DNA from: an uncultured virus (IMG/VR IMGVR_UViG_3300020185_000031)
Lineage: Duplodnaviria > Heunggongvirae > Uroviricota > Caudoviricetes
Virus record (IMG/VR): IMGVR_UViG_3300020185_000031
Location: 56,587-76,586 of that record
DNA length: 20,000 nt
Direction: 5' to 3' (one strand)
How positions within the stretch are numbered: position 1 is the first letter of the stretch; every line of letters begins with the position of its first letter. The notes under the pieces are model-generated. The model searched no databases, was not told where the DNA came from, and worked only from the letters and a program-made list of their open reading frames with translations. Of this stretch, positions 5,882 through 20,000 are shown piece by piece. The position numbers were made by a program, and so were the translations under genes.

Positions 5882-7390
5882 ATGGAGCTCAGTTTAACAG
5901 AGAATAAACAATTGTTGAGAATAGATAGTGCTACTGCGCTAGAACTCGAGCAATTAAATATATCTTTAACAAAGAGAATTGACTCGTGGAGATTTAATCC
6001 ACTTGTCAAAAGAGGTGTTTGGGACGGGTATATTTCATATGTAAAAGACGACAAGTGGATTCCTGCCGGCTTATGGAAAGAGGTAATGGACGTATGTAAA
6101 GAGTACAAAATAGATCTTAAGATCCATGGAATCACTCAATTATTTGATCGTGAAATTAATCAAGAATCATTTCAAAAATGGTCATCAGACTTCTTTAATG
6201 ATTCAGAAATTAAACCAAGAGACTATCAAATTGACGCTGCGTTTAATATATTAAAATTTAGAAAGTGTTTATCAGAATTAGCAACATCTGCTGGTAAGAC
6301 TTTAATTTCATTTTTAACAGTTGCATATATATTAGAAAAACAAAAAGCAGAAAAGGTTTTATTTATAGTACCTAATGTTTCTCTTGTAATTCAAGCAAGC
6401 GAGGACTTTACTGATTACAACTACAAAAATCAAGTCAATATTAAAATACAACAAATTTATTCTGGACAAAAAATTAGAGCAGGTAGGAATGTAGTGATAG
6501 GAACATATCAATCGCTAATTAAAAAACCAACTGAATACTTTGACCAATTTGAAGCTGTTATAATTGATGAAACGCATAAGGCAAAATCACAGTCAATTAA
6601 AACTATTCTATCTAAATGCAAAAACGCAGAATATAGATATGGTCTATCTGGTACTATACCTAAAACAGGAACGCTAGATAGATTAACATTAATGTCGTAT
6701 ACTGGGCCATTAATAACTGAGGTAAGTGCAAACTTTTTACAAAATGAAGGGTATATCGCTGGATGTAGAGTAAAAGTAATTGAAATGGATTATGCGACAC
6801 AAGGAGCAAAAGATGCTTTTAAAGAAATGGCTTTCAATAAATATGAAAGCAAAGACGTATTTAAATTCGAGCAAAATTATATTATTAATTCAACCGGACG
6901 TCTTAATTTTATTTGTAATATTATTTCTAGAGTACGTGGCAATAGCCTAGTGCTTTTTCACAGAATTGAACATGGTAAAAAAATATATGATAAACTTAGA
7001 CAAGATGGTGATAAGATCATATACTATGTTGATGGAGGTACTGACAAGGATATTAGAGAAGAATATAAAAAGAAAATGGAGCTAGGAGACGAAGTAGTTA
7101 TCGTAGCGTCTTATGGAACTTTTTCTACCGGTATTTCAATTAATAAAATGCATAATATATTTTTCACAGAATCGTTTAAATCAGAAGTTATTATTAGACA
7201 ATCAATTGGACGTGGTCTTAGGCAACATGCATCAAAAGACAGTGTTACTATCGTAGATTTTGTAGACGATATATCAAGTCCAGATTGGGATAATTATCTA
7301 ATTAGACACTCGAAGGCTAGACAAAAAATATACAATGAACAAAAGTTTAAGTTTGATGTTAAAAAGGTCAAATTTGAAGGAGATATATAA
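5882..7390 (+). CDS. uvsW: UvsW-like SF2 DNA helicase
   Basis: WDG N-terminal motif, PRDYQ (Q motif), LATSAGKT (Walker A), DETH, SGT, QSIGRGLR; 502 aa. Confidence 0.93.
   Translation: MELSLTENKQLLRIDSATALELEQLNISLTKRIDSWRFNPLVKRGVWDGYISYVKDDKWIPAGLWKEVMDVCKEYKIDLKIHGITQLFDREINQESFQKWSSDFFNDSEIKPRDYQIDAAFNILKFRKCLSELATSAGKTLISFLTVAYILEKQKAEKVLFIVPNVSLVIQASEDFTDYNYKNQVNIKIQQIYSGQKIRAGRNVVIGTYQSLIKKPTEYFDQFEAVIIDETHKAKSQSIKTILSKCKNAEYRYGLSGTIPKTGTLDRLTLMSYTGPLITEVSANFLQNEGYIAGCRVKVIEMDYATQGAKDAFKEMAFNKYESKDVFKFEQNYIINSTGRLNFICNIISRVRGNSLVLFHRIEHGKKIYDKLRQDGDKIIYYVDGGTDKDIREEYKKKMELGDEVVIVASYGTFSTGISINKMHNIFFTESFKSEVIIRQSIGRGLRQHASKDSVTIVDFVDDISSPDWDNYLIRHSKARQKIYNEQKFKFDVKKVKFEGDI
7382..7389 (+). 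promoter_or_regulatory. GATATATA putative late promoter for the accessory (head-internal protein) block
   Basis: Embedded in the last uvsW codons, 36 nt before ORF 7426. The same octamer occurs at 2852, 3028, 16556 and 19545, all at gene boundaries. Confidence 0.55.
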
Positions 7391-7425
7391 AGAGTAAAAT
7401 ACTATAAAAATAAAATAATAAGGTA

Positions 7426-9402
7426 ATGGCATTACAATCATTTGAACAATTTGCAAAAACTAACTCGACTAAAATCGCAGCTGAATTAGAATCTAATAAC
7501 ACAGTAGTAAGAGAAGAATCTGCAAGATCTTTTAGAGATCTTTTAAAAGAGTACGGAGTAACTAAAGTTTCTGAACTTGAAGAAGAAAACAGAGAAGAAT
7601 TTTTTAACAGAATTCAAGGAATTAAAGTTAACGAATCAGGAGTATACTCATTTAATGGAGCTAACATTTTAGAATCCATAGAAATTGCACCAGAATTCGA
7701 AGATTATATGGCTAATGAAGCTGTTATTATTACTGGTAAAAGAGACGCTAAAAAAGTGTTTAACCAATATGTTAAAATATTTAATGAATATTCTGCGTTC
7801 TCTAATAAAAACTCAAAGTTACACGCTTTAGGAGTATTGAAGCAAATATACTTTGATGCAATGGAAGACGCTAACTTTTCTAGAGAAGCGTACCCTACTA
7901 TGAAAAAGATTAAGGGTAATATTGGAAAGGTAGTTGTAAAGCTTGCTGAACTCAAAGGCATGGAAATTAAAATTCCAGGATCTAAAATAACATTCGCTAT
8001 CTCGCAAGTTGCTGGTAGAATATCGAACGCAGCAGGCTGGTCTGGAATTGGAATAGTCGAAGGTACTGCTCTTTATTTAGAGTCTATTGGAGAGCCTAAA
8101 ATAGCAGAAGATTTAGTAAATCTATTTCAGGCACAGTTTGAAGGAGAAGATGTAAGAGTAGATATTAGTTCTAAACTAAATGAATCTAAAAAGATTGTCG
8201 AAGGCGCTGTAAAAAGATTCGAGATGGACCTTAATGACATGATTAAAGATATTAAAAGAGGTTATGGTTGGATTGATCCAGAATTTGTAGCAGATACTTG
8301 GGAAAATACAAGTGATTCAATAGACTTTGAATTAGTTAAAGGAGAAATCTACAAAAGATTAATCGCAGCTGGTTTATTGGCGCATGCTGCTGATGATAAC
8401 GAAGAAGAGGCTGGAAAATACGTTAAAAACTTAAAAGAATTAGGAATTAAAGAATCAGTAGTTACTGAAGGTAAAGGTTTTAAAAACACCAAAGATTTTG
8501 AAGACTTCTTAGAAGAAATTGATGGCATGGGAGAGGCTCAAATCAAGAAAATCATGGGTAAAGATTATATCGATACTCCTGGATTCTATCAAGATGAAAA
8601 AGATAACTATGAAGATATTATAGATTTTATGATTTCAAACATGGGTGATTCAGAATTTGAAAAACTCCAAGACTGGTGGGAAAACAACGTTCAAGAATCA
8701 GTAGTTACTGAAGCTAAATTTGTAAAAGACTTTAACAGAGATGTTTTAAAGGCTAAAACAAAAGAAGAAGTTTTAGAGCTTTATCCAAACGCTGAATTCT
8801 TTATCGGTAAATCAGATCATTTCTTTGGAGAATTAGACGGTAACTTATTCTTTAAAGCATATTATACTAAAGCACAAAAAGAATTTGAAATTAAATCAGT
8901 TTATTCTGAAAAAGGAAGCAACTATGTTCATTTATACAATGAATCAATAGTTACTGAAGCTGAAATTGAAGAAGGTAACGCTTTCGGAGATGCAGTTAGA
9001 AAAGCTAAAGAAGCTGGAGATAAAGAATTTGATTTTGACGGAAAAACTTATAAGGTAACTGAAAGTACAATGTTATCTAGCGAATGGATCGTCGGAGAAA
9101 CTTACCCAGAATATGGCACTGTAATATCAATCACAAACAATGGAGGAGTTCAAGAGATAAGATTTGAATCCGGTGAAGTTATTAAATATGGATTTGGAGT
9201 AAAGGTTGAAGAATCAATTGTTAATGAAGCAGAAGTTACTTCTGATGAAGACTTTAAAGAATATGCGACTAATGTTTTACAAAAGGCATTTGGAAAAGAT
9301 TTTGACGAAGCAAAGGCAAATGAAGTTATTGATGGTATTTTAGGTAAAGTTGATGGAGACTATGGAGCTGCTGTTGGAATGCTAACAAGTTCATTAGGAT
9401 AA
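7426..9402 (+). CDS. Modular putative head-internal polyprotein with repeated prohead-protease-like sites
   Basis: Leader MALQSFEQF. Recurring VNES, ILES, LNES, IVEG, ESVVTEG, ESVVTEA, ESIVTEA, IEEG, VTES and ESIVNEA punctuate unrelated segments. Confidence 0.65.
   Translation: MALQSFEQFAKTNSTKIAAELESNNTVVREESARSFRDLLKEYGVTKVSELEEENREEFFNRIQGIKVNESGVYSFNGANILESIEIAPEFEDYMANEAVIITGKRDAKKVFNQYVKIFNEYSAFSNKNSKLHALGVLKQIYFDAMEDANFSREAYPTMKKIKGNIGKVVVKLAELKGMEIKIPGSKITFAISQVAGRISNAAGWSGIGIVEGTALYLESIGEPKIAEDLVNLFQAQFEGEDVRVDISSKLNESKKIVEGAVKRFEMDLNDMIKDIKRGYGWIDPEFVADTWENTSDSIDFELVKGEIYKRLIAAGLLAHAADDNEEEAGKYVKNLKELGIKESVVTEGKGFKNTKDFEDFLEEIDGMGEAQIKKIMGKDYIDTPGFYQDEKDNYEDIIDFMISNMGDSEFEKLQDWWENNVQESVVTEAKFVKDFNRDVLKAKTKEEVLELYPNAEFFIGKSDHFFGELDGNLFFKAYYTKAQKEFEIKSVYSEKGSNYVHLYNESIVTEAEIEEGNAFGDAVRKAKEAGDKEFDFDGKTYKVTESTMLSSEWIVGETYPEYGTVISITNNGGVQEIRFESGEVIKYGFGVKVEESIVNEAEVTSDEDFKEYATNVLQKAFGKDFDEAKANEVIDGILGKVDGDYGAAVGMLTSSLG
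8450..9230 (+). repeat. Four interspersed ~20-nt direct repeats encoding ES(V/I)V(T/N)E
   Basis: AAGAATCAGTAGTTACTGAAG is identical at 8450-8470 and 8693-8713. Variants: GAATCAATAGTTACTGAAGC at 8941-8960 and GAATCAATTGTTAATGAAGC at 9211-9230. Periods are 243, 246 and 270 nt. Confidence 0.9.
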
Positions 9403-9429
9403 TCATACTATAAATAAAAACTAAATAAA

Positions 9430-10716
9430 ATGAACAAATTATTATCATACGGAGAATTCTTAGTAGAGAGATCTAACGGAAATATTTATGAATCTAAACT
9501 AATCTTAGAAGGTGGAGCAGCAGGACATATGTCACATCCATTTGATGAAAAGAGTTTAACGTTTGGTGACTTTAAAAAGATCGTTGAGTTTGGCTTAAGA
9601 GGCGAACTTAACTTTGAAGAAGAGGCTACTGAAAAAACAGACGGACAAAACTTATTTGCAACCGTAATGGATGGAGAGGTTAAATTTGCCAGAGGTATTA
9701 ATGATATGAGGAATCCAATGACTCTCCAACAATTCAAAGATAAATTTAAAGACCATGGAAGTACATTAGTAAGAGATACTTTTCAATTCGCAGCAGAAGA
9801 TTTAGCAAATTCATTAAATAAGCTACCAGCAAAAGACTTAGAGGTTTTTAATAATGGTAAGAGTTTTATGAATATGGAGCTAATCTACTCGAAGAACCCA
9901 AATGTAATCTATTACGACAGGGATATTATTCAGTTTCACGGTATTAAACATACTGATGGTGAAGGTAATGAAATAGGAGAGGAAACAAAATACGCTGCAT
10001 CAATTGCAAAGGCTCTTAAAGACCTTAAGCTTGATATGGGTAAAACATTTTCAATAATTCCCCCACAAATCATTAAACTTGGTAAGGACATTGATTTTGA
10101 GGCTAATAAAGCAAAATTCATTAAGAAAGTTGAAGACCTAAGAACTCGTTATAATTTAACAGATGCTGACGAGGTTTCAAGATACCATGAAATGTGGTGG
10201 AGAGAAACTATTGATAAGAACTTTCCGGATTTAACACAAGATTATAAAGAAGGTTTATTATTAAGATGGGCATATGATGACAAGAAAACTCTTAATATAA
10301 GAAGTCTTGATAAAGAACTTGGAAAGGATCAATCTGCATTGATTAAGAAATTTGATAAAGAAAACGTTAAGAAGAAGCAAAAAGAAAACATTAGACCATT
10401 TGAAGATTTATTCTTAGAACTAGGTAGTGTTATCTTAATGAATGCTAGTAACTTTGTTGCTGCAAACCCAGATGCTGAAATGCAAAGGTTACATAATCAA
10501 ATTAGAACTGAGGCCGAGGCTATTAAAAAAGGAGGAAGTATTGACCAAATAGAAAAGGTTGAATCTGAACTTAAAAGACTAGATAGAATAGGTGGAATAG
10601 AATCAATTATCCCAACTGAAGGGCTTGTGTTCGTATATAATGGTAAGACATTTAAACTAACAGGTACATTTGCTGCTATAAACCAGCTTATGGGTATAAT
10701 AAAATACGGACGGTAA
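9430..10716 (+). CDS. RNA-ligase-fold (KxDG covalent nucleotidyltransferase) protein with capsid-targeting-like leader
   Basis: Motif I TEKTDGQN, III MELI, IIIa IQFHGI, IV EGLVF, V FKLTG. Leader MNKLLSYGEFLVE...IYE...ILE precedes GGAAGHMSHPFD. Confidence 0.7.
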   Translation: MNKLLSYGEFLVERSNGNIYESKLILEGGAAGHMSHPFDEKSLTFGDFKKIVEFGLRGELNFEEEATEKTDGQNLFATVMDGEVKFARGINDMRNPMTLQQFKDKFKDHGSTLVRDTFQFAAEDLANSLNKLPAKDLEVFNNGKSFMNMELIYSKNPNVIYYDRDIIQFHGIKHTDGEGNEIGEETKYAASIAKALKDLKLDMGKTFSIIPPQIIKLGKDIDFEANKAKFIKKVEDLRTRYNLTDADEVSRYHEMWWRETIDKNFPDLTQDYKEGLLLRWAYDDKKTLNIRSLDKELGKDQSALIKKFDKENVKKKQKENIRPFEDLFLELGSVILMNASNFVAANPDAEMQRLHNQIRTEAEAIKKGGSIDQIEKVESELKRLDRIGGIESIIPTEGLVFVYNGKTFKLTGTFAAINQLMGIIKYGR

Positions 10717-10730
10717 CTAAATAATATAAC

Positions 10731-12572
10731 ATGGCATTACAGAATTTAAGAACTTACTTTAGTGAATCGAGCATAAATGATTTTCAGCAAATGCTAGAAC
10801 ATTCATGCGTTGTAACTGAAAAATTACAAGCATCAAATTTTCATGTACAAAAAACAAACAGTGGATTTAATCATTACAAAAGTGGTGGTAAGAATCCAAT
10901 GAATCTTGTTGATAGAACAATCGTGAGGTACTATGAGAATGCAATCTCTCACTTTAATGCGCTAGAAGATGCTGGTAAAAAAGAAATGCCATTAGATTGG
11001 AAATTTGGATTTGACTATATGATTGATTCAAAAACGGTTAACATTAAATACGATAGAATACCAAAGAACAATTTAATGTTAACACATATCCAGATTCTTA
11101 ACCCAGTTGATGAAACATTAATTAAAAAAGTAATTAGAGATCCAAAAATTCTAAACAAATGGGCAGATATATTAGAAGTACAAAGGCCACAGGTTCTACA
11201 TCAAGGTAAGTTAACCGACCTTCAAAAAGAAGAACTCACTAAACTAATGTCAGTTTCAGAGTCTGAGTATTCTGAAAACTTTAAAGACATTTCGTTTTCT
11301 AGAAAAATGTACAGTATTTTTAATTCTTCTTTAAATTCTACAGCACTTAACGACGATTTAGATAGTACTATAGATTCTTTAGTAATTAATTTCTTTAATG
11401 GAAAAAGCGTTAAGAATTTTAAAATTTGTGAAGCTGAATCTCCAAGAGAGAATAGAAAGCCATCTGACATGTACCAAATAGCACTACTACAAATTGTTGA
11501 ATTCTTTTCAGCATTCGATATTGAAAAAATAGAGTTAGTAGAAAAGAAAGCTGACCTTAGGTACATTGAATTAACTTCACAATTATTTAATGCATATATA
11601 GATAAGAACGCATCAAAATACATTGGAGTTAAATTTGAATCAGCGGGTTTTGCAGATTCTCCAGAATTTTCACTAAACACTGCGTTTATTAAAAATGAAA
11701 AAACAATAGAACTAGTTTCAAACCCTATACTTTCTGAGCTTTACAAAATAGCACTGAGTTCTTTTAATAAGAAAAGAATTAAAGAAACTGATATTATTAA
11801 CGCAGATCTACTACAGCAAATCAATGAGATAGTTAAAAAAATAGAAGCGGTTGTAATGTTACAAAACAATGAAGATTTATCAATGATGAATTTTAAAACA
11901 TTCTTAAACCACGAAAATCTAAAGCATCAAGTAAGCCCAATTACTGAGGCATTAACTGTAAAATATCCAGAACAGGGTAAAAAACCAGTAAACATGTTTG
12001 TTGGCAGATTCCAGCCGTTTACGATGGGACATGCTAAAGTTGTTGAAACAATTAATAAACAAAATGGATATCCAGTAGTAATCTTTTTAGTTAAGGCAAA
12101 GAATAAGAAAAAAGAAGATGCTTTTAAGAGACCATATGACGAAGATACTCAAGTTAAAATGTTAAAGCAACTTAAAAAGAAATACCCAATAGAGAAGGTA
12201 TATGTTATAGACAGAGGTGCTATAGATTTAATGTTTAATACAATGAGAGCAGATGGATATGAGCCGGTGTTATGGGGTACAGGATCTGATAGAATTAAAA
12301 CATATTCATATCAGGTAGATAAGCCAGAATACAGAGAAGATTTAGGAGTTAGGACTGATTTTGGCCTTTTTGAAATTCCAAGAAATAATGATAATATATC
12401 AGCAACTCAAGTTAGAAATGCATTATTAGATGATGATGAAAAACTATTTAAAAAATTAACTCCTAAACAAATACACTCAATGTATAGTGAACTAAAATTA
12501 AAATTAGAAACATCTATGTCTACTAATGAGAGTACACTACAAACGTTTAATCAATTTTTAAAGAATATATAA
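10731..12572 (+). CDS. Fusion: degenerate ligase-fold N-terminus plus HIGH-family (cytidylyltransferase/NMNAT-like) nucleotidyltransferase
   Basis: C-terminal domain has FVGRFQPFTMGH, PY/GSDR segments and ISATQVR. N-terminal VTEKLQASN, IDSLVI and NFKI resemble decayed ligase motifs I, IV and V. Confidence 0.75.
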   Translation: MALQNLRTYFSESSINDFQQMLEHSCVVTEKLQASNFHVQKTNSGFNHYKSGGKNPMNLVDRTIVRYYENAISHFNALEDAGKKEMPLDWKFGFDYMIDSKTVNIKYDRIPKNNLMLTHIQILNPVDETLIKKVIRDPKILNKWADILEVQRPQVLHQGKLTDLQKEELTKLMSVSESEYSENFKDISFSRKMYSIFNSSLNSTALNDDLDSTIDSLVINFFNGKSVKNFKICEAESPRENRKPSDMYQIALLQIVEFFSAFDIEKIELVEKKADLRYIELTSQLFNAYIDKNASKYIGVKFESAGFADSPEFSLNTAFIKNEKTIELVSNPILSELYKIALSSFNKKRIKETDIINADLLQQINEIVKKIEAVVMLQNNEDLSMMNFKTFLNHENLKHQVSPITEALTVKYPEQGKKPVNMFVGRFQPFTMGHAKVVETINKQNGYPVVIFLVKAKNKKKEDAFKRPYDEDTQVKMLKQLKKKYPIEKVYVIDRGAIDLMFNTMRADGYEPVLWGTGSDRIKTYSYQVDKPEYREDLGVRTDFGLFEIPRNNDNISATQVRNALLDDDEKLFKKLTPKQIHSMYSELKLKLETSMSTNESTLQTFNQFLKNI

Positions 12573-12592
12573 AAAAACAAAAAAATAGTAAT

Positions 12593-14428
12593 ATGATAAA
12601 TTTTAAACAATTTATAACTGAAGCATCGGTTATAATGGACGCAACAGATCCAGAATCTAGAGTACTGAAAAAATTACTTAAGAAACATAAGGTTAAAATG
12701 GAAATTGTTAATAACGAAGGACCAAGTGGTTTTCCAGAAGTTGAACTAACTGGAGCTAGAAAAGATCTTGAAGCAGTATTAGCATCTGAAGACGGATGGG
12801 ACGATGCTGGTTTAAACGATTACATCGAAGAATCTAATTCTGCTAATGAATCTAAGATTGTTATCAAGAGAAGATATACTGAAAGCTATCCCGCAGTTAC
12901 TGTTGGTAAAAGCGCAAAAATTAGAAATAAAATGCTTGAGGCTATTTCTGATGGTAAAATTACACAAGAAGAGTTTAATAGTATCTTAAAAGAAATGTCA
13001 ACCGATTCTCCTAGGTGGATGCGAAGAAATAATAAATTCTTTAGTATATCTGAAGAGGGTATTTCACTTTCAAAATTTGGTAAAAAAGCACTTTCACAAA
13101 TTACAGTAAATGAAGAAGAACTCGACGAGGGTAGAGCATTCGTTGCAGCCGCTAAAAAAGCAAAAGACGAAGGTAAAAAAGAATTCGAATTTGGAGGCAA
13201 GAAATTCCCAGTACAAATAAAGGAAGAAAAGAAATCACAATTTATATATGAATCATTTAGAGACTTTGTAAACTTTTTAACTGAATCAAAAGAAGCTACA
13301 GAGGCTGAATCAATCTTAGCTGATCTTTTAGACGAAAGAGGCGGAGACATGGGAGAATTGCATGGAATGGAAATTGATGATGCACTAGACACGGTAGAAT
13401 CATACGGACATAAAGGTGCTAAAGCAAAGAAAATTGCACAAGAATTAGTTTCAATGACTAATGAATCTTTAATTAATGAGGCGTTTGCATCTGTAAAACT
13501 TGCAAGCATCTTAACTGGAGGTAACAAAATGCCTAAGGATCTTCCTAAAGCATTTTACAACATGTCTAAAATTGCACTTGATAAAGTTCAAGATGTAGAT
13601 ATTATTGAAATAGATCCTCAAGCAGCAAGAAAAGAAAAGAGACAAAACGCAGTTTATTTATACTTTACAACAAACGAAAAAGAAAATCCATACGCTGCTC
13701 GTGGTTCTTATGGCGTTAGCACTATTCCAGCAAATACTTTATTAGCAATTACAGATGGTTCTAATGAATGGATGAATATGCAATGGCAAAACAAATACAA
13801 TTCAAAAGATAGAAAAAAATCTTTACAAAAGACTAAAAGAGATGATAGTTCTGGTTTTGACAAATCAAGTTCTAATGATTCTTATGGAAGTGGTATTTCA
13901 AGTTTAACTAAAGTTGCTGAATTAGCAGATAGAGCATATTGCTTAGATTTAGATATTCTTAAAGCAAGATATTCTACAACCGCAAAAAGAGATGAAAGAG
14001 CTGACTCTAAAGCGGGCGCTATATCTTTTAAATCTGATAAAGATTTTAAGAAAGCTAACTTAGACAGATACAACACTATTATTTCAGATAGAGCCTCAAA
14101 AATGCCTTTAGATAAAATGGTTGCCGATGCTATCGATACTATAACTAAGCAAATTAAAGACGGTCTTGTTAAAGGAGAAAAAGGAAAATACGGAGATATT
14201 ATAATAGGAAGAAACAAAAAGGGTAGCGAAGCAAAACTATCAGAAGCAGCAAGGCACATGCAATATATCCTTGATGATTTCCAAAGATATGTAAGTTCTT
14301 CTAACCAAGCTAAAATAGAAAAAGATTCTGGATATTCTGGAAATTACTACGATCAAGAAATTAAAAGATATGCTAAAGATGTATCTGATAAATTAAAGCA
14401 AGTAGAAGATTTTGGATACATTTGGTAA
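12593..14428 (+). CDS. Second modular putative head-internal polyprotein
   Basis: Leader MINFKQFITE. Internal IEES, ANES, VNEE, LDEG, IYESFRDF, LTES, ATEA and TNESLINEA. Shares a ~30-aa module with ORF 7426. Confidence 0.65.
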   Translation: MINFKQFITEASVIMDATDPESRVLKKLLKKHKVKMEIVNNEGPSGFPEVELTGARKDLEAVLASEDGWDDAGLNDYIEESNSANESKIVIKRRYTESYPAVTVGKSAKIRNKMLEAISDGKITQEEFNSILKEMSTDSPRWMRRNNKFFSISEEGISLSKFGKKALSQITVNEEELDEGRAFVAAAKKAKDEGKKEFEFGGKKFPVQIKEEKKSQFIYESFRDFVNFLTESKEATEAESILADLLDERGGDMGELHGMEIDDALDTVESYGHKGAKAKKIAQELVSMTNESLINEAFASVKLASILTGGNKMPKDLPKAFYNMSKIALDKVQDVDIIEIDPQAARKEKRQNAVYLYFTTNEKENPYAARGSYGVSTIPANTLLAITDGSNEWMNMQWQNKYNSKDRKKSLQKTKRDDSSGFDKSSSNDSYGSGISSLTKVAELADRAYCLDLDILKARYSTTAKRDERADSKAGAISFKSDKDFKKANLDRYNTIISDRASKMPLDKMVADAIDTITKQIKDGLVKGEKGKYGDIIIGRNKKGSEAKLSEAARHMQYILDDFQRYVSSSNQAKIEKDSGYSGNYYDQEIKRYAKDVSDKLKQVEDFGYIW

Positions 14429-14456
14429 TAATTTAAAAAATAAAATTATAAACAAT

Positions 14457-14996
14457 ATGTCTAGCACAAAAAATGAAAAACTTTCAGAATCTGAATTAAA
14501 CGAATATGACGGTATTAGTCCTGGTTCTGGATCGCATCCAGGAAATATGGGAGGTATGGGTAAGCTTCAACTTCCATCAGGAGGAACTACAGGTTCTGGA
14601 GATGTACCATCAGGACAAGGAGACGCTAAAGAAATATTTAAAAAGAAAAAGAAAAAGAAAAAGATGAAATACGTTAGCACGTTTGAATCATTTAATTTAA
14701 GCGAATCAGCTAAACCTTCTACTGCATTAATGCAATTTGCAAAAGATGAAAATGCAGAAGAAAGGGTTTATTTAGGATATTTTTCTGGCAAATCAATGGA
14801 TGCACAATCTACTAATAAGACATGGGAAGATGGAGTACCAGTAACTAAGAACTTTACTAGAGGAGGTTATAAACAAGTATCACCTAACGGTAAAATATGG
14901 ATTATAGAAACTACACAATGGTGGTACTTTGAAACTAAGGGAACATGGTACGCTGTTAAGAGAAAGGATTACGGTACCCCGCCTTTTGAATATTAA
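14457..14996 (+). CDS. Hypothetical protein with Gly/Ser-rich N-region, K8 tract and internal capsid-targeting-like motif
   Basis: Start reassigned from TTG 14412 (inside the upstream gene) to ATG 14457 after an A-rich leader. Internal MKYVSTFESFNLSE starts at 14664; the C-terminal domain is aromatic-rich. Confidence 0.65.
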   Translation: MSSTKNEKLSESELNEYDGISPGSGSHPGNMGGMGKLQLPSGGTTGSGDVPSGQGDAKEIFKKKKKKKKMKYVSTFESFNLSESAKPSTALMQFAKDENAEERVYLGYFSGKSMDAQSTNKTWEDGVPVTKNFTRGGYKQVSPNGKIWIIETTQWWYFETKGTWYAVKRKDYGTPPFEY

Positions 14997-15024
14997 AATA
15001 ATTTGAGTATCATCGAATTAAAAT

Positions 15025-15052
15025 AAAGCCTAGAGAAATCTAGGCTTTTTTT
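15025..15052 (+). terminator. Rho-independent terminator closing the accessory block
   Basis: AAAGCCTAGA-GAAA-TCTAGGCTTT hairpin followed by a T run. Confidence 0.9.
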
Positions 15053-15074
15053 ATGTAATCTAGCAAATATGTTA

Positions 15075-15101
15075 GAAACAATACAACTTTAGCTAATATA
15101 A
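15075..15101 (+). promoter_or_regulatory. Putative phage early/middle promoter (GAAACA-N15-ATATAA) for DNA polymerase
   Basis: Located between the terminator and the polymerase ATG (17 nt upstream); same motif and spacing as at 3010 and 3166. Confidence 0.7.
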
Positions 15102-15118
15102 CTTCTAAAATAATTAGA

Positions 15119-16522
15119 ATGCTATTAGATATTGAACAAAAAGCCAACGAAGTCATTGTTTCATACTACAACAAAGAAGGCAAGGTAGCCTTTAAAAGGT
15201 ATCCAGTATCTCAATTTGAAAATTGGGTAGTTGCTGGTGAAGATGAAAAGTGGAAAGATCAAACATATACAAATTGGGATGGACGTCCTCTTAAAAGACA
15301 GCGCTCTAGAAACTTTAATAAGTTTTCTCTAGTCTATTTTATGGATTCTCTTCCTGAGAATGATCGGAAAGAAATATTCGAGTTTAATATGCCAAGAACA
15401 TATTTTGTCGATATTGAAACCGAAATAGTAGATGGTTTTCCAAAAGCGGAAGAGGCTAGAACTAGAATATTAGCGTTCTCCATTATTACACCTGAACGCA
15501 AGGCTATCGTCTTAGGTCTTGATGATTTATCTAGCGAACAAATCAAGAAGATTGAGGATGACACACTAAAGCACTTTAGGAAATACGATCAAGATTGGGA
15601 GTTTAGCTACTATAAATTTAAGGATGAATACAACATGTTATATACGTTCTTGCATAAATTCCTACCTAAATTCCCAATGATGACAGGATGGAATTTTATA
15701 AACTATGACTGGCAGTATATTGTAAATCGTTGTAAAAGACTCCAGATAGATCTAACTGAAATTGCAGTAACAGGAGCTCTTGATAGTAACGATAGTAGAC
15801 CTTTACATATGGGTATTTTAGATTATATGCAATTATATGACAAATATGACAGATCGGTAAAGGTAAAAGAATCAAATCGCCTTGATTTTGTTGCTGGCCA
15901 AGTTCTTGATGTTGCTAAAATAAAGCACACGGGCTCTCTACAAGATCTTTATGAAAATGATTTTCAAAAGTATGTGTTTTATAATGTAGTAGATTCTATT
16001 TTAGTATATTATATTGACGAAAAATTAAAATCAATGGAAGTTTTACTTACTCTTGCAACGATTACACAAATGCCTTTATACAAAGCAGCAAGCCCCGTTG
16101 CAGTAACCGAAGCATTAATGGCTCGTAAGATGGCTGAGCAAAATCACAAGATTGGGGTTGATTATAATCAGAAAGATAATCAAAAAGATGGCAAATACGC
16201 AGGTGCATTTGTAAAACAACCAATAGTTGGATATTATTCTGGAGTAAGCGCATTTGATTTTGCTTCACTATATCCTTCAGTAATGAGACAGTTTAATATA
16301 TCACCAGAAGCATATGTAGATATAATACCTAAGACTCAAATAGAGCAACGCAGGAAGAATACAGAAGAAATAGTTTGTGAGAATGGTGTTGTATATAAGA
16401 AAGAAGATTCAGTTCTTAAAAACATACTAGGAGACTTGTATGAGCAACGAAAAGATTATAAGAAATTATCGTACCAGTATTACGAAAAGGCTCACGAACT
16501 CAAAAAAAGATTTGAAAAATAA
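15119..16522 (+). CDS. gp43: Family B DNA polymerase, N-terminal subunit only (exonuclease + palm motif A; gp43A-like split polymerase)
   Basis: ExoI DIETE, ExoII GWNFINYDWQY, ExoIII YNVVDS, YAGAFVKQP and FDFASLYPSVMRQFNISPE. Ends after EQRKDYKK, without KxxxNSxYG or YGDTDS. Confidence 0.9.
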   Translation: MLLDIEQKANEVIVSYYNKEGKVAFKRYPVSQFENWVVAGEDEKWKDQTYTNWDGRPLKRQRSRNFNKFSLVYFMDSLPENDRKEIFEFNMPRTYFVDIETEIVDGFPKAEEARTRILAFSIITPERKAIVLGLDDLSSEQIKKIEDDTLKHFRKYDQDWEFSYYKFKDEYNMLYTFLHKFLPKFPMMTGWNFINYDWQYIVNRCKRLQIDLTEIAVTGALDSNDSRPLHMGILDYMQLYDKYDRSVKVKESNRLDFVAGQVLDVAKIKHTGSLQDLYENDFQKYVFYNVVDSILVYYIDEKLKSMEVLLTLATITQMPLYKAASPVAVTEALMARKMAEQNHKIGVDYNQKDNQKDGKYAGAFVKQPIVGYYSGVSAFDFASLYPSVMRQFNISPEAYVDIIPKTQIEQRRKNTEEIVCENGVVYKKEDSVLKNILGDLYEQRKDYKKLSYQYYEKAHELKKRFEK

Positions 16523-16555
16523 TTTTATAGATATAAGCCATGATACCATCTATAT

Positions 16556-16568
16556 GATATATAGATTA
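16556..16568 (+). promoter_or_regulatory. GATATATAGATTA putative promoter upstream of nrdB
   Basis: The same 13-mer occurs at 19545-19557. Overlaps the inverted repeat ATCTATAT-gat-ATATAGAT (16548-16566). Confidence 0.5.
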
Positions 16569-16596
16569 ACTAAATAAAACACAGCTACGATAAGAT

Positions 16597-17577
16597 ATGA
16601 ATAAAAACATTTTTCAACCGAGAACAAATATATTACCATATGAATACCCACAATTGTTAGCGTATAAAGACGCAATTAGACACTCATATTGGATTCATAC
16701 CGAATTTAACTTCACTACAGATATTGACGATTTTAAAACTAAGGTTTCTGATTCTGAAAGAGAAGTTATTAAGAGAGCAATGCTTGCGATCGCACAAATT
16801 GAAGTTAATGTTAAAACTTTTTGGGCAGATCTTTATAAAAGAATGCCTATTACAGAAGTTGGTGATGTTGGAATGACTTTTGCAGAATCTGAAGTAAGAC
16901 ATAAAGATGCTTACGCACAATTACTTAGAGTCCTTGGATTAGAAGATGATTTTAAAAGTGTAGTTGAAATTCCTGCAATTAAAGACAGAATTTCATACTT
17001 AAAGAAATACTTAGACGGTACAAGAAGTAGAGATGATAAAATGTATACTAAATCAGTATTACTGTTCTCATTATTTATAGAACATGTAAGTCTGTTTAGT
17101 CAGTTCTTAATTATGATGTCGTTTAACAAAGAGAAGAACTTATTTAAAGGAATCTCAAATGTAGTTGAAGCAACATCAAAAGAAGAAGAAATTCACGGAA
17201 ACTTTGGATCAGAACTTATTAATATTATTAAAGAAGAAAATCCAGAATGGTTCGATGAGGAGTTTGAACAACTAATAGATTCAGCATGCAAGAAGGCTTA
17301 TGTTGCTGAATGTAAAATATTAGATTGGATCTTTGAGCAAGGTGAACTTTCATTTTTGTCAAAAGAAACTATACAGAACTTTATTAAAAACAGATTCAAT
17401 AACTCATTAACTCGCATCGGTATGAAACCTGTATTTGATGTTGATTTTACTGAAATTGAAAAGACATTATGGTTTGATGTAGAAATTACAGCAACTAAAG
17501 AAGGAGATTTCTTCTACAAGAAAAGTACCGATTATAATAAGAAAAGCAAATCAATTACTGAAGATGATTTGTTTTAA
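16597..17577 (+). CDS. nrdB: Class I ribonucleotide reductase beta subunit (class Id-like)
   Basis: PYEYP, W..TEFNF, QIEVNVK, ESEVRHKDAY, FIEHVSLFSQF, EEEIH, DFFYKKSTDY. Confidence 0.95.
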   Translation: MNKNIFQPRTNILPYEYPQLLAYKDAIRHSYWIHTEFNFTTDIDDFKTKVSDSEREVIKRAMLAIAQIEVNVKTFWADLYKRMPITEVGDVGMTFAESEVRHKDAYAQLLRVLGLEDDFKSVVEIPAIKDRISYLKKYLDGTRSRDDKMYTKSVLLFSLFIEHVSLFSQFLIMMSFNKEKNLFKGISNVVEATSKEEEIHGNFGSELINIIKEENPEWFDEEFEQLIDSACKKAYVAECKILDWIFEQGELSFLSKETIQNFIKNRFNNSLTRIGMKPVFDVDFTEIEKTLWFDVEITATKEGDFFYKKSTDYNKKSKSITEDDLF

Positions 17578-17580
17578 ATT

Positions 17581-17799
17581 ATGAAAACAATTATTCACGT
17601 TAACCAACACGTAATAAAATCTAATAGAAAGAACAATGTTAAAGATCCTGTATTAACTTGTAAAACATACAAGGATAATACATATGCACATGAAGTAAAA
17701 ATATTAGGTCCTAGCAAAGTAGTGTATAGCCCTGATAAACCCCTAAGTTGTGGAGCACATGTATGGATTGAAACAGAAGGGGGAAATAACAATAATTAA
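17581..17799 (+). CDS. Small phage hypothetical protein (IHVNQH...YSPDKPLSCGA.VWIET)
   Basis: Clean 72-aa ORF exactly filling the nrdB-nrdA gap. Confidence 0.75.
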   Translation: MKTIIHVNQHVIKSNRKNNVKDPVLTCKTYKDNTYAHEVKILGPSKVVYSPDKPLSCGAHVWIETEGGNNNN

Positions 17800-17811
17800 A
17801 TAAAATTACAC

Positions 17812-19437
17812 ATGAAATACGAAAAAAATTACTGGTTAAACGAGGATAGCAGGACGTTTCTATCTAGAGGTTACATTTCGGAAACACCGGAACAGAGGAT
17901 TAAGGACATTGCAAACACGGCAGAAAGATATTTAAAGATAGAAGGATTTGCGCATAAGTTTGAGGATTATATGACCAGGGGTTTTTATAGTTTATCAACT
18001 CCAGTTTGGATTAACTTTGGAAAAGATAAAGGACTTCCAATCAGTTGTTATGGATCAAACGTAGATGACACATTAGATAGTATCTTAAACGGTTCAAGAG
18101 AGATTGGAATGATGTCAAAATATGGAGGCGGAACTTCAGTTTATTTAGGAAACATTAGAGAGCGAGGTGCAAGTATTTCTACAGGAGGGACAGCAGACGG
18201 ACCAGTACACTATGCTAGAATGTATGATACTACTGTCGATGTATGTAAACAATCCGAAGCAAGAAGAGGTGCATGCGCAGCTTGGCTGCCAATAGAACAT
18301 AATGACATTTTAGAATTTTTAGATATTGGAACTGAAGGAAACCCTATTCAAAATCTACAATATGGAGTTACGGTAACTGACAAATGGATTCAAGAAATGA
18401 AAGATGGTGATGCAGATAAACGTAAAGTATGGGCTAAAGTTATTCAAAAGCGCAATGAGTTTGGTTTTCCATATATCATGTTTAAAGACAACTCTAATAA
18501 TAATTCTCCCTATAAAGAATTAGGACTTGAAATTACAGCTTCAAATTTATGTTCTGAAATTCAATTACCAACAGATTCATTTAATTCTTTTGTTTGTTGT
18601 TTAGGTTCATTAAATCTTTTACACTGGGATGAAATTAAAGAAACTGATGCAATTGAGACATACGTACTGTTCTTAAACGCAGTAATGGATGAATTTGTTA
18701 AGAAATCATATAACTTACCAGGAATGGCAAGAGCTCATAGATTTGCAAAAGAGCACAGAGCTATCGGATTAGGAGTACTTGGATATCATTCACTATTTCA
18801 ATCAAAACTTATTGAATTTAATTCATTAGCAGCAAAGGCAATTAACCATGATATATTTTCAACGCTAAAAGAGAGAAGCGATAAGGCTTCAAGATGGCTA
18901 CATGATGAGAAAGATATTAAATCAATTAGACCAGGATATGCAAACTCAACTTTGCTTGCAATCGCACCGACAAAAAGTAGTTCATTTATTCTAGGTCAAG
19001 TAAGCATGGGAATAGAACCAATTAAATCTAATTATTTCGTAAAAGATTTAGCAAAATCCAAGACAATATACAAAAATAATCACTTAATAACTGAATTAGA
19101 GAAATACGGATTAAACACTCCACAGGTATGGGAGGACATCTTAAAGAAAGATGGAAGTGTACAACACTTAGACTTTCCAACAAAGGCAGTATTTAAATCA
19201 TTTATTGAAATTAGCCCAAAGGAATTAATTCTACAGGCAGCACAGAGACAAAAATTTATTGACCAATCACAGTCTTTAAATTTAATGATTCACCCAAGTG
19301 TAGCAGCAAAGGATATTAATCAATTGTATTTATATGCACACGAAGAGGGAGTAAAGACGCTATATTATCAATTTAGTCAAAGTTCAGCACAGTCATTTGC
19401 AAGAGACATTCTTGATTGTGATAGCTGCGGAGCTTAA
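17812..19437 (+). CDS. nrdA: Class I ribonucleotide reductase alpha subunit, short form without ATP-cone
   Basis: PISC, GGGTS, RRGACA, SNLCSEI (thiyl Cys), CCLGSLN, IAPTKSSS, IDQSQSLN, KTLYY, C-terminal CDSC. Confidence 0.96.
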   Translation: MKYEKNYWLNEDSRTFLSRGYISETPEQRIKDIANTAERYLKIEGFAHKFEDYMTRGFYSLSTPVWINFGKDKGLPISCYGSNVDDTLDSILNGSREIGMMSKYGGGTSVYLGNIRERGASISTGGTADGPVHYARMYDTTVDVCKQSEARRGACAAWLPIEHNDILEFLDIGTEGNPIQNLQYGVTVTDKWIQEMKDGDADKRKVWAKVIQKRNEFGFPYIMFKDNSNNNSPYKELGLEITASNLCSEIQLPTDSFNSFVCCLGSLNLLHWDEIKETDAIETYVLFLNAVMDEFVKKSYNLPGMARAHRFAKEHRAIGLGVLGYHSLFQSKLIEFNSLAAKAINHDIFSTLKERSDKASRWLHDEKDIKSIRPGYANSTLLAIAPTKSSSFILGQVSMGIEPIKSNYFVKDLAKSKTIYKNNHLITELEKYGLNTPQVWEDILKKDGSVQHLDFPTKAVFKSFIEISPKELILQAAQRQKFIDQSQSLNLMIHPSVAAKDINQLYLYAHEEGVKTLYYQFSQSSAQSFARDILDCDSCGA

Positions 19438-19444
19438 AGAAACG

Positions 19445-19528
19445 CCGATCTGAAATACGATCGGATTTTAGGACCGTAATAGTTACGGCTTGGGCAGAGA
19501 AAAGTTCGCTACTATCTCTGCCCTTTTT
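19445..19528 (+). ncRNA. Three-hairpin structured RNA element in nrdA 3' region (unassigned)
   Basis: CCGATC/GATCGG (19445-19464), CCGTAA/TTACGG (19474-19488) and GGGCAGAGA/TCTCTGCCC (19492-19523). Confidence 0.45.
19492..19528 (+). terminator. Rho-independent terminator after nrdA
   Basis: 9-bp GC-rich stem followed by TTTTT. Confidence 0.85.
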
Positions 19529-19544
19529 ATTTGTAAAAATAAAA

Positions 19545-19557
19545 GATATATAGATTA
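19545..19557 (+). promoter_or_regulatory. GATATATA(GATTA) putative late promoter
   Basis: Sits between the nrdA terminator and the next gene, where a new promoter is needed. Confidence 0.6.
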
Positions 19558-19578
19558 TAAAAAATGAAAATAAACATT

Positions 19579-19839
19579 ATGAAACACATTAAATTATTCG
19601 AACAGTTTATCACAGAAGGTAGAAAATCATGGGATGATATAGATCCTTATAATATTGGAGATGAATTTAAGTCTCAATTTCCAAAAAACAGAGATTGGGA
19701 AGACGAAGGATTTGAGTCATTAGAATACTGGATGCAAGAAGAATGGGGACCAAATGCGGGTGTAGAAAAAAACAAAGGATTTGATGATGCACTTGACGTA
19801 GTACAATCGTACTTATCAGACGCCGGTTATTCAGTTTAA
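19579..19839 (+). CDS. Small acidic protein with capsid-targeting-like leader
   Basis: MKHIKLFEQFITE|G leader (alternative start at 19564). The remainder is acidic and Trp-rich. Confidence 0.75.
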   Translation: MKHIKLFEQFITEGRKSWDDIDPYNIGDEFKSQFPKNRDWEDEGFESLEYWMQEEWGPNAGVEKNKGFDDALDVVQSYLSDAGYSV

Positions 19840-19889
19840 TAAAACAAAATATAAAATGAAACACATTAAATTATTTGAACAGTTTATCA
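19579..19889 (+). repeat. 34-nt direct repeat encoding the shared leader MKHIKLFEQFI
   Basis: ATGAAACACATTAAATTATT(C/T)GAACAGTTTATCA at 19579-19612 and 19856-19889, with one mismatch. Confidence 0.92.
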
Positions 19890-20000
19890 ATGAATCTCAA
19901 TTCGCTGATGATAGTACTTCTAATCAAGATGCTAAGTTAAGGCTAAAAGAACGTACAGAACTAACAAAAAAATTAATTAAGGCAACCGGGATTACAACAT
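19856..20000 (+). CDS. 3'-truncated protein with capsid-targeting-like leader
   Basis: MKHIKLFEQFINE|SQFADDSTSNQDAKLRLKERTELTKKLIKATGITT..., open to the window end; not in the ORF track. Confidence 0.8.
   Translation, partial: MKHIKLFEQFINESQFADDSTSNQDAKLRLKERTELTKKLIKATGITT

Follow-up and report, generated by a model that had tools for sequence, protein, structure and literature searches.

A phage gene of exchangeable cassettes joined by one recurring in-frame linker: putative head-loaded polyprotein of an uncultured virus

The internal proteins of bacteriophage T4 are the textbook case of capsid-delivered counter-defence, and each of them is encoded by a separate gene. In the T4 record, the N-terminal tag of IPII and IPIII reads MKTYQEFIAE/A, and IPI carries a 19-aa tag ending in ITE/A (a slash marks a cut or candidate cut throughout). 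The T4 protease gp21 cleaves after L/I-x-E and was first found to act at a Glu-Ala bond, Asp in place of this Glu prevents processing in T4, and the T4 capsid targeting sequence (CTS) is already in use for packaging foreign proteins (PMC9026906, available text). In the giant phages phiKZ, 201phi2-1 and SPN3US, a gp21-related protease processes many head proteins on the C-terminal side of Glu, there at S/A-x-E. According to the available part of the same account, their propeptides exceed 100 aa and contain extra internal sites, and paralogous ejection proteins share identical N-termini (PMC5694885). Polyvalent proteins combine disparate domains in one polypeptide, which presumably travels with the DNA before proteolysis separates the domains; their authors liken them to RNA-virus polyproteins (Iyer et al. 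2017, PMC5512222, as far as its text is available).

The gene described here lies in a 20,000-nt stretch of DNA from an uncultured virus, a marine T4-like giant phage; the stretch was analysed as a whole and is called the window. The product of the gene, P0001, is a chain of independent units. It comprises a leader, a core that is basic and conserved, and six small cassettes (34-90 aa), most of them acidic. The linker that recurs between the units has the consensus h-x-E-S-V-V-(T/N)-E and is followed by A, G or S.

Layout of the gene and its linker

An earlier note, made from the letters of this DNA alone, had described a repeat of ~20 nt encoding ES(V/I)V(T/N)E that recurs in frame, with a tandem pair of x-x-E sites at each junction and with the first two copies identical over 21 nt. 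All of this was borne out. The 19-nt pattern GAATCARTWGTTAMTGAAG has four copies in the window (8452, 8695, 8941 and 9211), all on the plus strand and in the frame of the ORF 7426-9402; 0.01 copies are expected in a shuffled window, and none of 200 shuffles reached four. A repeat search returned a single family, at 8447, 8690, 8936 and 9206, with spacings of 243, 246 and 270 nt. An exact 21-mer is common to the first two copies (8450-8470 and 8693-8713), and these identical repeats flank cassette M1. The linker peptides in P0001 are ESVVTE at aa 343 and aa 424, ESIVTE at aa 506 and ESIVNE at aa 596, each preceded by a second h-x-E (IKE, VQE, YNE and VEE, respectively).

Looser candidate cuts of the linker type occur at aa 70, 98, 258 and 545. 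The one at aa 258 belongs to LNESKKIVE (aa 250-258, nt 8173-8199), which had been named as a looser junction and proved to be a real module boundary: 33 BLAST HSPs begin at aa 237, others begin at aa 242-259, and family alignment A1 changes there. The proposal that the segments of 243-270 nt are the units stood in part. They are bounded by linkers, but the 270-nt segment holds a boundary that had been missed, KVTE/S (aa 545, nt 9049-9060), which splits it in two and at which 36 HSPs end (aa 545-547).

Table 1. Units of P0001 and the second cassette-bearing gene of the window
Feature	Residues (aa)	Position (nt)	Strand	Description
Whole P0001 gene		7426..9402	+	658-aa polyprotein, 74 kDa, pI 4.6, stop included
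Leader	1-70	7426..7635	+	Starts MALQSFEQFA, ends IKVNE/S; from alignment A1 and AF2 model
Disordered acidic spacer	71-98	7636..7719	+	Ends YMANE/A; pLDDT <50 over aa 67-104
Conserved core	99-258	7720..8199	+	17.6 kDa, pI 9.3, helical; ends KLNESKKIVE/G
Cassette A	259-348	8200..8469	+	Ends at junction 1, ESVVTE (8452-8469)
Cassette M1	349-429	8470..8712	+	81 aa, pI 4.1; ends at junction 2, ESVVTE (8695-8712)
Cassette M2	430-511	8713..8958	+	82 aa; ends at junction 3, ESIVTE (8941-8958)
Mini-cassette M3a ('GNAF' unit)	512-545	8959..9060	+	Helix and hairpin; ends KVTE/S
Cassette M3b	546-601	9061..9228	+	Ends at junction 4, ESIVNE (9211-9228)
Cassette M4	602-658	9229..9399	+	57 aa, pI 4.1, three-helix unit, pLDDT 74-96
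Second cassette-bearing gene		12593..14428	+	611 aa, tag MINFKQFITE/A; phrog_5922 match

The leader is predicted by AF2 as two helices (aa 6-42 and 53-63) and is common to many otherwise different proteins, including the short proteins P0145, P0146, P0149, P0216, P0127 and P0163. The spacer region is the place at which relatives carry extra cassettes in alignment A1. The columns of this alignment also reveal an invariant stretch in the core, AAGW.G.GI.EGTALYLE, and the model is confident there (pLDDT >90 for aa 105-240). M2 is a well-folded alpha/beta unit in the predicted structure (pLDDT 82-96) and M3a reaches 75-85, while M3b is modelled as beta strands with low confidence. The cassettes and the spacer are acidic (pI 4.1-5.7). 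Profile comparisons and the predicted structure agree that several unrelated domains are carried in one phage polypeptide. With pLDDT <50 at every junction and a pTM of 0.34, the AF2 model is not one continuous fold, as the proposed modular build had required.

Exchange of cassettes and search for their functions

P0001 has 1065 homologs at E<=0.01, and the linker is present in 119 of the best 120 of them, among which 72 different cassette orders were found. M4 is the commonest cassette (61 of these best 120 of 1065 homologs), standing last in 43 and internally in 18, and it is doubled in proteins of 209 aa. Cassette A occurs at other positions in P0029, P0068, P0130, P0237 and P0239; M2 occurs in many other cassette orders and in short proteins; and M3a has 18 tblastn matches in the loci, often elsewhere in the gene. 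P0002 is nearly identical to P0001 and differs from it only by one clean exchange between two linkers: an unrelated 86-aa cassette stands in place of M1, and the flanks are identical at 347/348 and 82/82 positions. Moreover, 98 of 142 HSP boundaries (at least 70% identity) fall within 8 aa of the four strict cuts, where 0.10 is expected. The segments between the linkers had been called mutually unrelated, and this holds for the profiles: in 45 hhalign comparisons covering 10 cassette families all probabilities were <50%, and the best alignments were the last 6-11 residues, which are the linker.

Metagenome contigs point in the same direction. Both ends lie in linkers in five of the seven contig joints among those listed. 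Loose ends lie at 8450-8475, 8689-8713 or 8958-8964 in 16 of the 24 among those listed, some of them being linkers of paralogous genes and not alleles (X3 at 8475, for example, continues as the cassette at 96821 of G001, a longer record described below). M1 lies between unrelated flanks in a contig of 584 nt, and the depth of the M2 contig is far above that of its flanks in three of four runs. Two cassette families match the stand-alone phage protein families phrog_1987 and phrog_5922. The expectations that relatives differ in the number and order of their cassettes, with breakpoints at the repeat, and that modules occur differently embedded or alone, are thus confirmed, and it can be concluded that cassettes are gained, lost, replaced and reordered in nature with breakpoints at the linker.

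No Pfam match above cut-off was obtained on P0001, on 45 family members covering all cassette clusters or on single cassettes (E<=10), and rows below the cut-off (FAM25, zf-CHCC, Tad4 and others) were attributed to chance. The same Pfam scan of 45 members gave no embedded peptidase and no recognisable effector or enzyme domain, and PHROGs gave no match for P0001. Foldseek (PDB, BFVD) and VIA-align on both AF2 models yielded no match at E<=0.001; the best structural Z scores, 5.5 and 5.6, were both to generic helical bundles. The conserved core had no fold match, all of its ESM Atlas rows being at TM <0.5. A HigB/YafQ-like identity for M2 (ESM Atlas, TM 0.53) received no backing from the Pfam or PDB searches and was set aside. 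One BFVD row, A0A8S5TFJ2 (79 aa, prob 1.0, 61 columns, 33% identity), hints that one cassette has a stand-alone relative. The word 'effector', which had been applied to the modules, is unsupported, as the Pfam and fold searches linked no cassette to a known function.

Cultured relatives were sought as well. A tblastn search of 50,697 phage records with the full-length P0001 and with every cassette separately found no relative; the one exception, a row at E=0.01, fell on a DNA polymerase gene and was regarded as chance. Two scans of 185,579 prokaryote genomes gave no confirmed relative; the first of them used M4 patterns, and its confirming query was without M4. A literature search found no description of such a gene.

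The linker as a candidate cut site and alternative explanations

The record G001 is identical to window positions 9782-20000, so that G001 and the window represent the same phage; the P0001 gene is absent from G001 because this record begins at window position 9782. G001 encodes a gp21-type protease (24337-26184; Peptidase_S77 PF03420, 52.6 bits; PHROG 207, 3e-41), whose protease domain runs from 24337 to about 24900 and which adjoins the portal and MCP genes, and a gp21-type protease is present in all four related virus records searched. Scans of the 19 window ORFs and of 26 G001 ORFs revealed no other protease. The linker agrees with the gp21-type motif (hydrophobic P3, Glu at P1, usually small P1'), with mostly Val where T4 has Leu or Ile. 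In 207 distinct linker contexts drawn from the best 120 of 1065 homologs, with P1 Glu fixed by the search pattern, P3 is Val in 189, Ile in 10 and Leu in 8; P2 is Thr in 104 and Asn in 87; and P1' is Ala in 130, Gly in 40 and Ser in 15. Position -7 is V, I, L or Y in 158 of the 207, creating the second h-x-E. The N-terminus of the MCP, MATLINE/AEIR, is linker-like, three relatives have LINE/AE or KINE/AE, and KRVNE/S follows directly after the protease domain in all four protease ORFs.

Tags at the N-terminus add to this context. At least 12 G001 ORFs have a start that resembles the T4 CTS: 12 of 187 begin with MKH(I/V)KLFEQF(I/L/V)(N/S/T)E, a short tag of the 13-aa MKHIKLFEQFINE type; the DNA upstream of the tagged ORFs is not conserved and their synonymous sites vary. 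One tagged ORF is located between the protease and MCP genes. The start of P0001 has the FEQF core, like the 12 short tags and T4 YQEFIAE, and its first candidate cut is at aa 70, residues 10-19 having none. A paralogous polyprotein (G001 91609-93582) has an acidic segment of 58 aa with 93% identity to the scaffold part of the protease ORF, and a cassette polyprotein is encoded two genes downstream of the MCP. The second cassette-bearing gene of the window (Table 1) has three cassettes of the P0001 family, then ESLINE/A (nt 13463-13480) and then a long unique part. The proposal that the repeat is a protease-cleavage linker is therefore strongly consistent with its context, namely the gp21-type protease, the T4 rule, the linker-like MCP N-terminus and the CTS-like tags.

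Taken together, a linker that resembles a protease site and swaps that occur exactly at this linker in relatives suggest that P0001 is probably capsid-loaded, self-dismantling cargo with exchangeable parts. It is considered fairly probable that P0001 is loaded into the head and cut by the prohead protease into small proteins, while the linker would also serve as an in-frame crossover point. Its cleavage and packaging, like a possible effector role, are inferences. The leader, whose first residues are like the T4 capsid targeting sequence, would bring P0001 into the prohead scaffolding core. The gp21-type protease would cut after the Glu of each linker, with a probable second cut after the Glu five residues upstream that would release an SVV(T/N)E pentapeptide, and about eight pieces would be freed inside the head. 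Folded pieces would remain alongside the DNA and reach the host cell when the phage infects, and the high cassette turnover would represent an arms race, as for T4 internal proteins. In-frame cassette exchange would come about when the linkers of different genes or genomes recombine, by homology or micro-homology. Such exchange would spare expression, targeting and processing, because a near-identical word of ~20 nt is present at every junction.

The P0001 gene sits among replication genes, with UvsW upstream and polymerase and RNR downstream, ~15 kb from the head genes, and this position counts against the cargo reading; the ip genes of T4 are dispersed too (T4 record). The first cut candidate of P0001 only at aa 70, the mostly Val P3, the acidity of the cassettes and the lack of a recognised function or fold in the searches above are further points against that reading. 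The late promoter consensus TATAAATA occurs 9 times against 4.7 expected and not before the P0001 gene, which has TATAAAAATA; this is uninformative.

An unlikely alternative is that P0001 is cut but its pieces are scaffold-like filler, making it an accessory prohead-core protein like T4 gp22, gp67 and gp68, whose small acidic fragments would mostly leave the head before DNA packaging. The acidic cassettes and spacer and the segment shared by the paralog and the protease ORF agree with such a role, as does the cutting of T4 core proteins into several capsid-exiting fragments (PMC5694885, PMC9026906, in their available parts). However, M2, M4 and M3a are confidently folded small domains, two cassette families have the stand-alone matches in PHROGs described above, and 72 architectures with rapid swapping are hard to square with a size-determining scaffold.

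It is quite unlikely that P0001 remains an uncut 74-kDa multidomain ('polyvalent') chain, in which the linker would be a structural or docking motif, such as a strand binding scaffold or capsid. At P3, P1 and P1' its linker obeys the rule for the protease that this phage encodes, and similar sequences stand at the N-terminus of the MCP and where the protease domain ends. That one six-residue motif separates unrelated domains in 207 contexts is most easily explained by a common reader of it, and a tandem pair of h-x-E sites is what redundant cutting typically looks like. These points oppose the uncut chain even though polyvalent phage proteins combining many disparate domains exist (PMC5512222, available text), cutting of P0001 is so far a deduction, and AF2 gives the linker no defined structure either way.

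At the DNA level, the codons of the linker were counted in 81 distinct contexts, the sequences being related by descent, and the p-values are inflated because related sequences were counted. Ser AGY is found in 0/77 (background 0.20), the first Val is GTA in 53/68 (background 0.41), the second Val is GTT in 48/55 (background 0.50) and Thr is ACT in 21/23 (background 0.50). Glu and Asn codons follow background, and TCA and TCT are both found together with ACT. The idea of micro-homology exchange is supported to this extent by Ser, Val, Val and Thr codons that are more uniform than background, but the kinship of the contexts and the free variation of the Glu and Asn codons weaken it. The same uniformity, and a 5-bp inverted repeat in the word (TCAGT-AGTT-ACTGA), could also indicate a primary function in nucleic acid; the word would then be an RNA element, or a target for recombination or a nuclease, and its peptide incidental. 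This is very improbable: third positions vary under a fixed peptide (GAA/GAG, TCA/TCT, AAT/AAC, all four Val codons), and the ESVVNE form (41/81 contexts) breaks the small hairpin. RNA folds at the four junctions are no better than shuffles (z 0.27, 1.04, -1.11 and 0.41) and no consistent inverted repeat exists across them, so that an RNA or attC-like structure there was rejected; no internal start codon follows the word. That P0001 is cut in the cytoplasm by a host or second phage protease and never enters the capsid is highly improbable, since its replication-gene neighbourhood and the lack of an exact late-promoter match before the gene are outweighed by the shared tag resembling the T4 capsid targeting sequence, the cassette polyprotein two genes downstream of the MCP gene, the MCP-like linker and the lack of another protease among the ORFs scanned.

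Head-loaded, cut cargo is the preferred explanation of P0001. A wider form of it is possible but doubtful, in which the linker is a dual-use element, both protease cut site and in-frame crossover word, and several genes per genome are racks for a shared pool of small capsid-delivered proteins. Among marine T4-like giant phages, such a pool could comprise hundreds of families, and many acidic cassettes could inhibit host defences in the first seconds of infection.

Comparison with known systems

The T4 system of IPI, IPII, IPIII and Alt has counterparts in this phage, namely a gp21-family protease, N-terminal tags of similar style (P0001 itself having the FEQF core, with its first candidate cut at aa 70) and candidate cuts after h-x-Glu before a small residue. 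Mature IPI* has 76 aa, and the cassettes are similarly small. In both cases conservation is confined to the targeting and cut signals, actual or putative, and what they would deliver varies greatly (for T4, the available parts of PMC3012670 and PMC9026906). Each T4 cargo has its own gene with its own 10-19-aa tag, whereas here up to about eight units share one 70-aa leader and one ORF, within which the candidate cut site is repeated as a linker, unlike in T4 internal proteins. T4 IPI-III are basic (pI 8.9-9.5) in contrast to the acidic cassettes, and T4 has Leu or Ile at P3 where Val is found here. If the cargo reading is true, the T4 trick would be scaled up, one targeting signal and one linker serving to load, process and exchange many small proteins. 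The leader or tag with ESVV(T/N)E/A would then be a sequence rule for the packaged proteome of a large uncultured marine phage group and would give a catalogue of compact, independently folding candidate effectors. Linker and tag may also serve as a natural design for multi-cargo loading of phage heads.

The head proteins of giant phages lose propeptides and, in the available part of PMC5694885, are not described as arrays of unrelated exchangeable units with one linker; tblastn against the 50,697 phage records showed no sequence relation to them. Polyvalent proteins have recognisable enzymatic domains and an embedded zincin-like peptidase in the available text of PMC5512222, whereas none was found in the 45 family members scanned, and cutting here would be in trans, at a fixed linker and by the head protease. 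PeSLs of T4-type phages (2010, PMC2839356, available text) are short conserved motifs between small non-essential units that mark points of insertion, deletion and replacement, and P0001 likewise has a short conserved repeat at the ends of the swapped units. However, PeSLs are intergenic promoter-terminator units that move whole genes, while the linker is coding, in frame and moves protein parts; the repeat lies inside the ORF, with no significant stem-loop and no intergenic sigma-70-like promoter and terminator of the PeSL type.

Integron arrays, like this gene, are ordered series of small unrelated units bounded by a recurring site, and gain, loss and reordering occur there. In integrons, an IntI-type tyrosine recombinase is adjacent, and the attC sites, imperfect inverted repeats able to fold, lie between separate promoterless ORFs, whereas here the site is an in-frame coding word of 18-21 nt. 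The description of the locus as an integron-style array was not upheld, with no integrase among the 19 window ORFs (PHROGs, Pfam), no attC-like structure and cassettes that are in-frame parts of one ORF, and the comparison is an analogy only. If the dual-use reading is true, the linker would provide an integrase-free, in-frame functional counterpart of the integron for injected cargo.

A modular chain exchanged at its linker

P0001, the 658-aa polyprotein encoded by window ORF 7426-9402, is built as a chain of modules, with a conserved linker, ES(V/I)V(T/N)E, between them at aa 343, 424, 506 and 596. The repeat described in the earlier note was recovered as a 19-nt pattern at 8452, 8695, 8941 and 9211 (expected 0.01); the first two copies have an exact 21-mer in common, and the spacings of 243, 246 and 270 nt are all in the frame of the ORF. 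The parts of P0001 were delimited by alignment of 37 relatives, BLAST boundaries and two AlphaFold models. In the model of aa 259-658, stretches with pLDDT <50 fall on every junction and pTM is 0.34, indicating beads on a string rather than a single continuous fold. M2, M3a and M4 are confidently folded in this model. The P0001 cassettes are acidic (pI 4.1-5.7). When 10 cassette families were compared profile against profile (45 pairs), no probability exceeded 46%, and the best alignments cover the common linker alone.

Parts of P0001 and a second cassette-bearing gene (↓, proposed cut)
Feature	Position	Description
Leader	aa 1-70	two helices; C-terminal end KVNE↓S
Spacer	aa 71-98	disordered; C-terminal end MANE↓A
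Core	aa 99-258	conserved, basic, pI 9.3; pLDDT >90 for 105-240; C-terminal end KLNESKKIVE↓G
Cassette A	aa 259-348	
Cassette M1	aa 349-429	
Cassette M2	aa 430-511	
Cassette M3a	aa 512-545	C-terminal end KVTE↓S
Cassette M3b	aa 546-601	
Cassette M4	aa 602-658	
Second cassette-bearing gene	window 12593-14428	611 aa; N-terminal tag MINFKQFITE↓A

A protein search with P0001 returned 1065 proteins at E<=0.01 (7998 candidates scored). Among the best 120 of these 1065 homologs, 119 carry E-[ST]-h-h-x-E in one to seven copies. When the 120 were split at this motif and the pieces clustered, recurrent cassette families were found in 72 distinct architectures, and two families were seen in both relative orders. 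A search aimed at shorter proteins added 401 matches, including 90-350-aa proteins composed of the leader and one to three P0001-family cassettes; one such architecture, the leader with two M4 units, is present on 59 contigs. Of the 50 proteins scanned, 13 have a cassette of ~110 aa that matches phrog_1987 almost over its full length (lowest E 7e-13); this cassette precedes the core in three of the 13 and follows it in ten. Matches to phrog_5922 were seen in 4 of the 50.

A margin of 8 aa around the four strict cuts takes in 98 of the 142 internal HSP ends against P0001 at >=70% identity (expected 0.10), and 125 of the 142 when four looser cuts are included (expected 0.21). At any identity, the counts are 198/470 and 321/470, respectively. 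The clearest swap is found in P0002, a near-identical relative that matches P0001 in the upstream part (347/348), M2 (82/82), M3 (90/90) and M4 (54/57) and has an unrelated 86-aa cassette in place of M1, exchanged linker to linker. M1 is precisely the cassette enclosed by the window's two identical 21-mers. Cassettes are exchanged at the linker in nature; the architectures, the clustering of HSP ends and the P0002 swap bear out the earlier expectation that module content and order vary with breakpoints at the repeat.

The stretch or part of it is present in twenty public runs, with shares of 0.99 to 0.27 in six and 0.12-0.15, about the size of one cassette, in fourteen. Contigs, not reads, of four runs, X10 alone representing the fourteen with small shares, were placed on window 7000-9800. 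Five of the 7 listed joints run linker to linker (8456>8704, 8470>8695, 8471>8695, 8473>8939 and 8474>8693), and of the 24 loose contig ends listed, beyond which there are thirteen more, 16 fall at 8450-8475, 8689-8713 or 8958-8964. Linkers of paralogous genes in the same phage account for some of the loose ends. M1 occurs with 17 differences on a 584-nt contig, with unrelated sequence on both sides. Contig depth, summed over organisms, is several-fold higher over M2 than over its flanks in three runs.

Codon use at the linker was counted over 81 distinct contexts. Glu and Asn codons follow background usage. Ser is never AGY (0/77; background 0.20), Val1 is GTA in 53/68 (0.41), Val2 is GTT in 48/55 (0.50) and Thr is ACT in 21/23 (0.50), so the linker word is more uniform than the peptide demands, to a degree that these statistics overstate because the contexts share descent. 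Such uniformity would be expected if the word spread by recombination, and also if homology were selected for. A 5-bp inverted repeat, TCAGT-AGTT-ACTGA, is present in the word (window 8452-8470 and other junctions); it folds no better than shuffles and is lost in ESVVNE and TCT variants. No RNA or attC-like structure was present at the linker junctions.

The linker as a candidate head-protease site

The linker consensus over 207 distinct contexts is h(-7)-x-E-S-V-V-(T/N)-E, with two h-x-E sites in tandem; the next residue is A in 130, G in 40 and S in 15. According to passages of two papers (PMC9026906, PMC5694885), T4 prohead protease gp21 and its giant-phage relatives cleave after Glu, at L/I-x-E or S/A-x-E, and the earliest gp21-type site defined is a Glu-Ala bond. 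This phage encodes a cognate gp21-type protease, and both that protease and the major capsid protein (MCP) carry linker-like sites. In G001, a virus record of the same phage, a single 615-aa frame between the portal and MCP genes (24337-26184; piece L045:4337-6184) joins a Peptidase_S77 protease to an acidic coiled coil. The coiled-coil part resembles a scaffold and contains repeated ...IQY(T/S)E... units. The protease is present in all 4 related virus records searched, the open frame being 652-736 aa in relatives, and KRVNE↓S ends the protease domain in all four records. The MCP begins MATLINE↓AEIR.

In the 187 G001 ORFs, 12 copies of the strict linker motif were counted; 200 shuffles gave 1.78 on average and 6 at most. 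The copies are concentrated in four additional multi-cassette genes, which have cassettes in common with the relatives of P0001. One, at 29066-30814 (L045:9066-10814), lies two genes downstream of the MCP gene, and its product has a long C-terminal stretch of tandem GKDKGTSG / GKDEGTSG repeats. Another, at 91609-93582 (L048:11609-13582), encodes a 657-aa polyprotein with three ESVVTE linkers. Three tandem copies of an acidic segment of ~57 aa are visible in it by eye; one copy (58 aa) aligns by BLAST with the protease-scaffold ORF at aa 383-440 (93% identity). The second cassette-bearing gene of the window contains phrog_5922-like, GNAF-like (M3a-like) and 61-aa units, all common to P0001's relatives, followed by ESLINE↓A at aa 291-296 and ~315 aa of unique sequence.

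N-terminal tags and the phage genome

The window is AT-rich (32% G+C) and belongs to a T4-like phage, with gp32, primase, UvsW, a family-B polymerase piece and ribonucleotide reductase recognized by PHROGs and Pfam. G001 matches window 9782-20000 without a difference and extends this genome further; its 148,784 bases and CheckV completeness of 49% imply a full size of ~300 kb. The family-B polymerase ORF (window 15119-16522) has just 467 aa, covering the exonuclease domain and the beginning of the polymerase domain, and may be one of two genes that together encode the polymerase. Directly 3' of the polyprotein gene are window 9430-10716 (428 aa, without a family match, tag-like N-terminus MNKLLSYGEFLVE), preceded by an exact TATAAATA at 9409-9416, and 10731-12572 (613 aa), with a C-terminal cytidylyltransferase-like domain (PF01467, 5e-9).

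The phage has a family of tags resembling the T4 capsid targeting sequence (CTS). MKH(I/V)KLFEQF(I/L/V)(N/S/T)E starts 12 of 187 G001 ORFs (pieces L044-L051). DNA upstream of the tag is not conserved and synonymous sites within it vary, so the signal resides in the protein. The tagged ORF between the protease and MCP genes reads ...FINE↓AK. Window ORF 19564-19839, counted from Met at 19579, is one of the 12, and a related sequence, MKDIKTFKEYLVE, is at the N-terminus of ORF 1830-2207. The T4 record gives MKTYQEFIAE↓A as the N-terminus of both IPII and IPIII, and for IPI a 19-aa tag with the end ITE↓A; the G001 tags plainly resemble these in their residues, their position and the cut site at their end. 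P0001 itself begins MALQSFEQFA, with the same tag core and no cut there, and runs on into the 70-aa helical leader, which is common to many other proteins. The tag sequences suggest that many small proteins of the phage are targeted to the head. A RimK-like enzyme (G001 58443-59927, PHROG 2599) and a tRNA nucleotidyltransferase (61395-62549, PHROG 2244) carry h-h-(N/T)-E↓A near the N-terminus (aa 12-19); they may be packaged enzymes, or the motif may be due to chance.

Proposed pathway and known systems

The polyprotein would be loaded into the prohead and cut at the linkers, and the pieces would be retained in the head and then ejected; cassettes would recombine through the linker word. Alternatively, the pieces may be expendable prohead core material, as the acidity of the cassettes and a scaffold-like segment in a paralog would allow. 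The effector function earlier ascribed to the cassettes is so far unsupported. Full-text literature searches found no account of such cassette arrays, and the linker peptides appeared in no paper searched. The nearest known systems are the T4 CTS and gp21-processed internal proteins, giant-phage head proteins with multiple processing, polyvalent proteins and PeSL-mediated shuffling.
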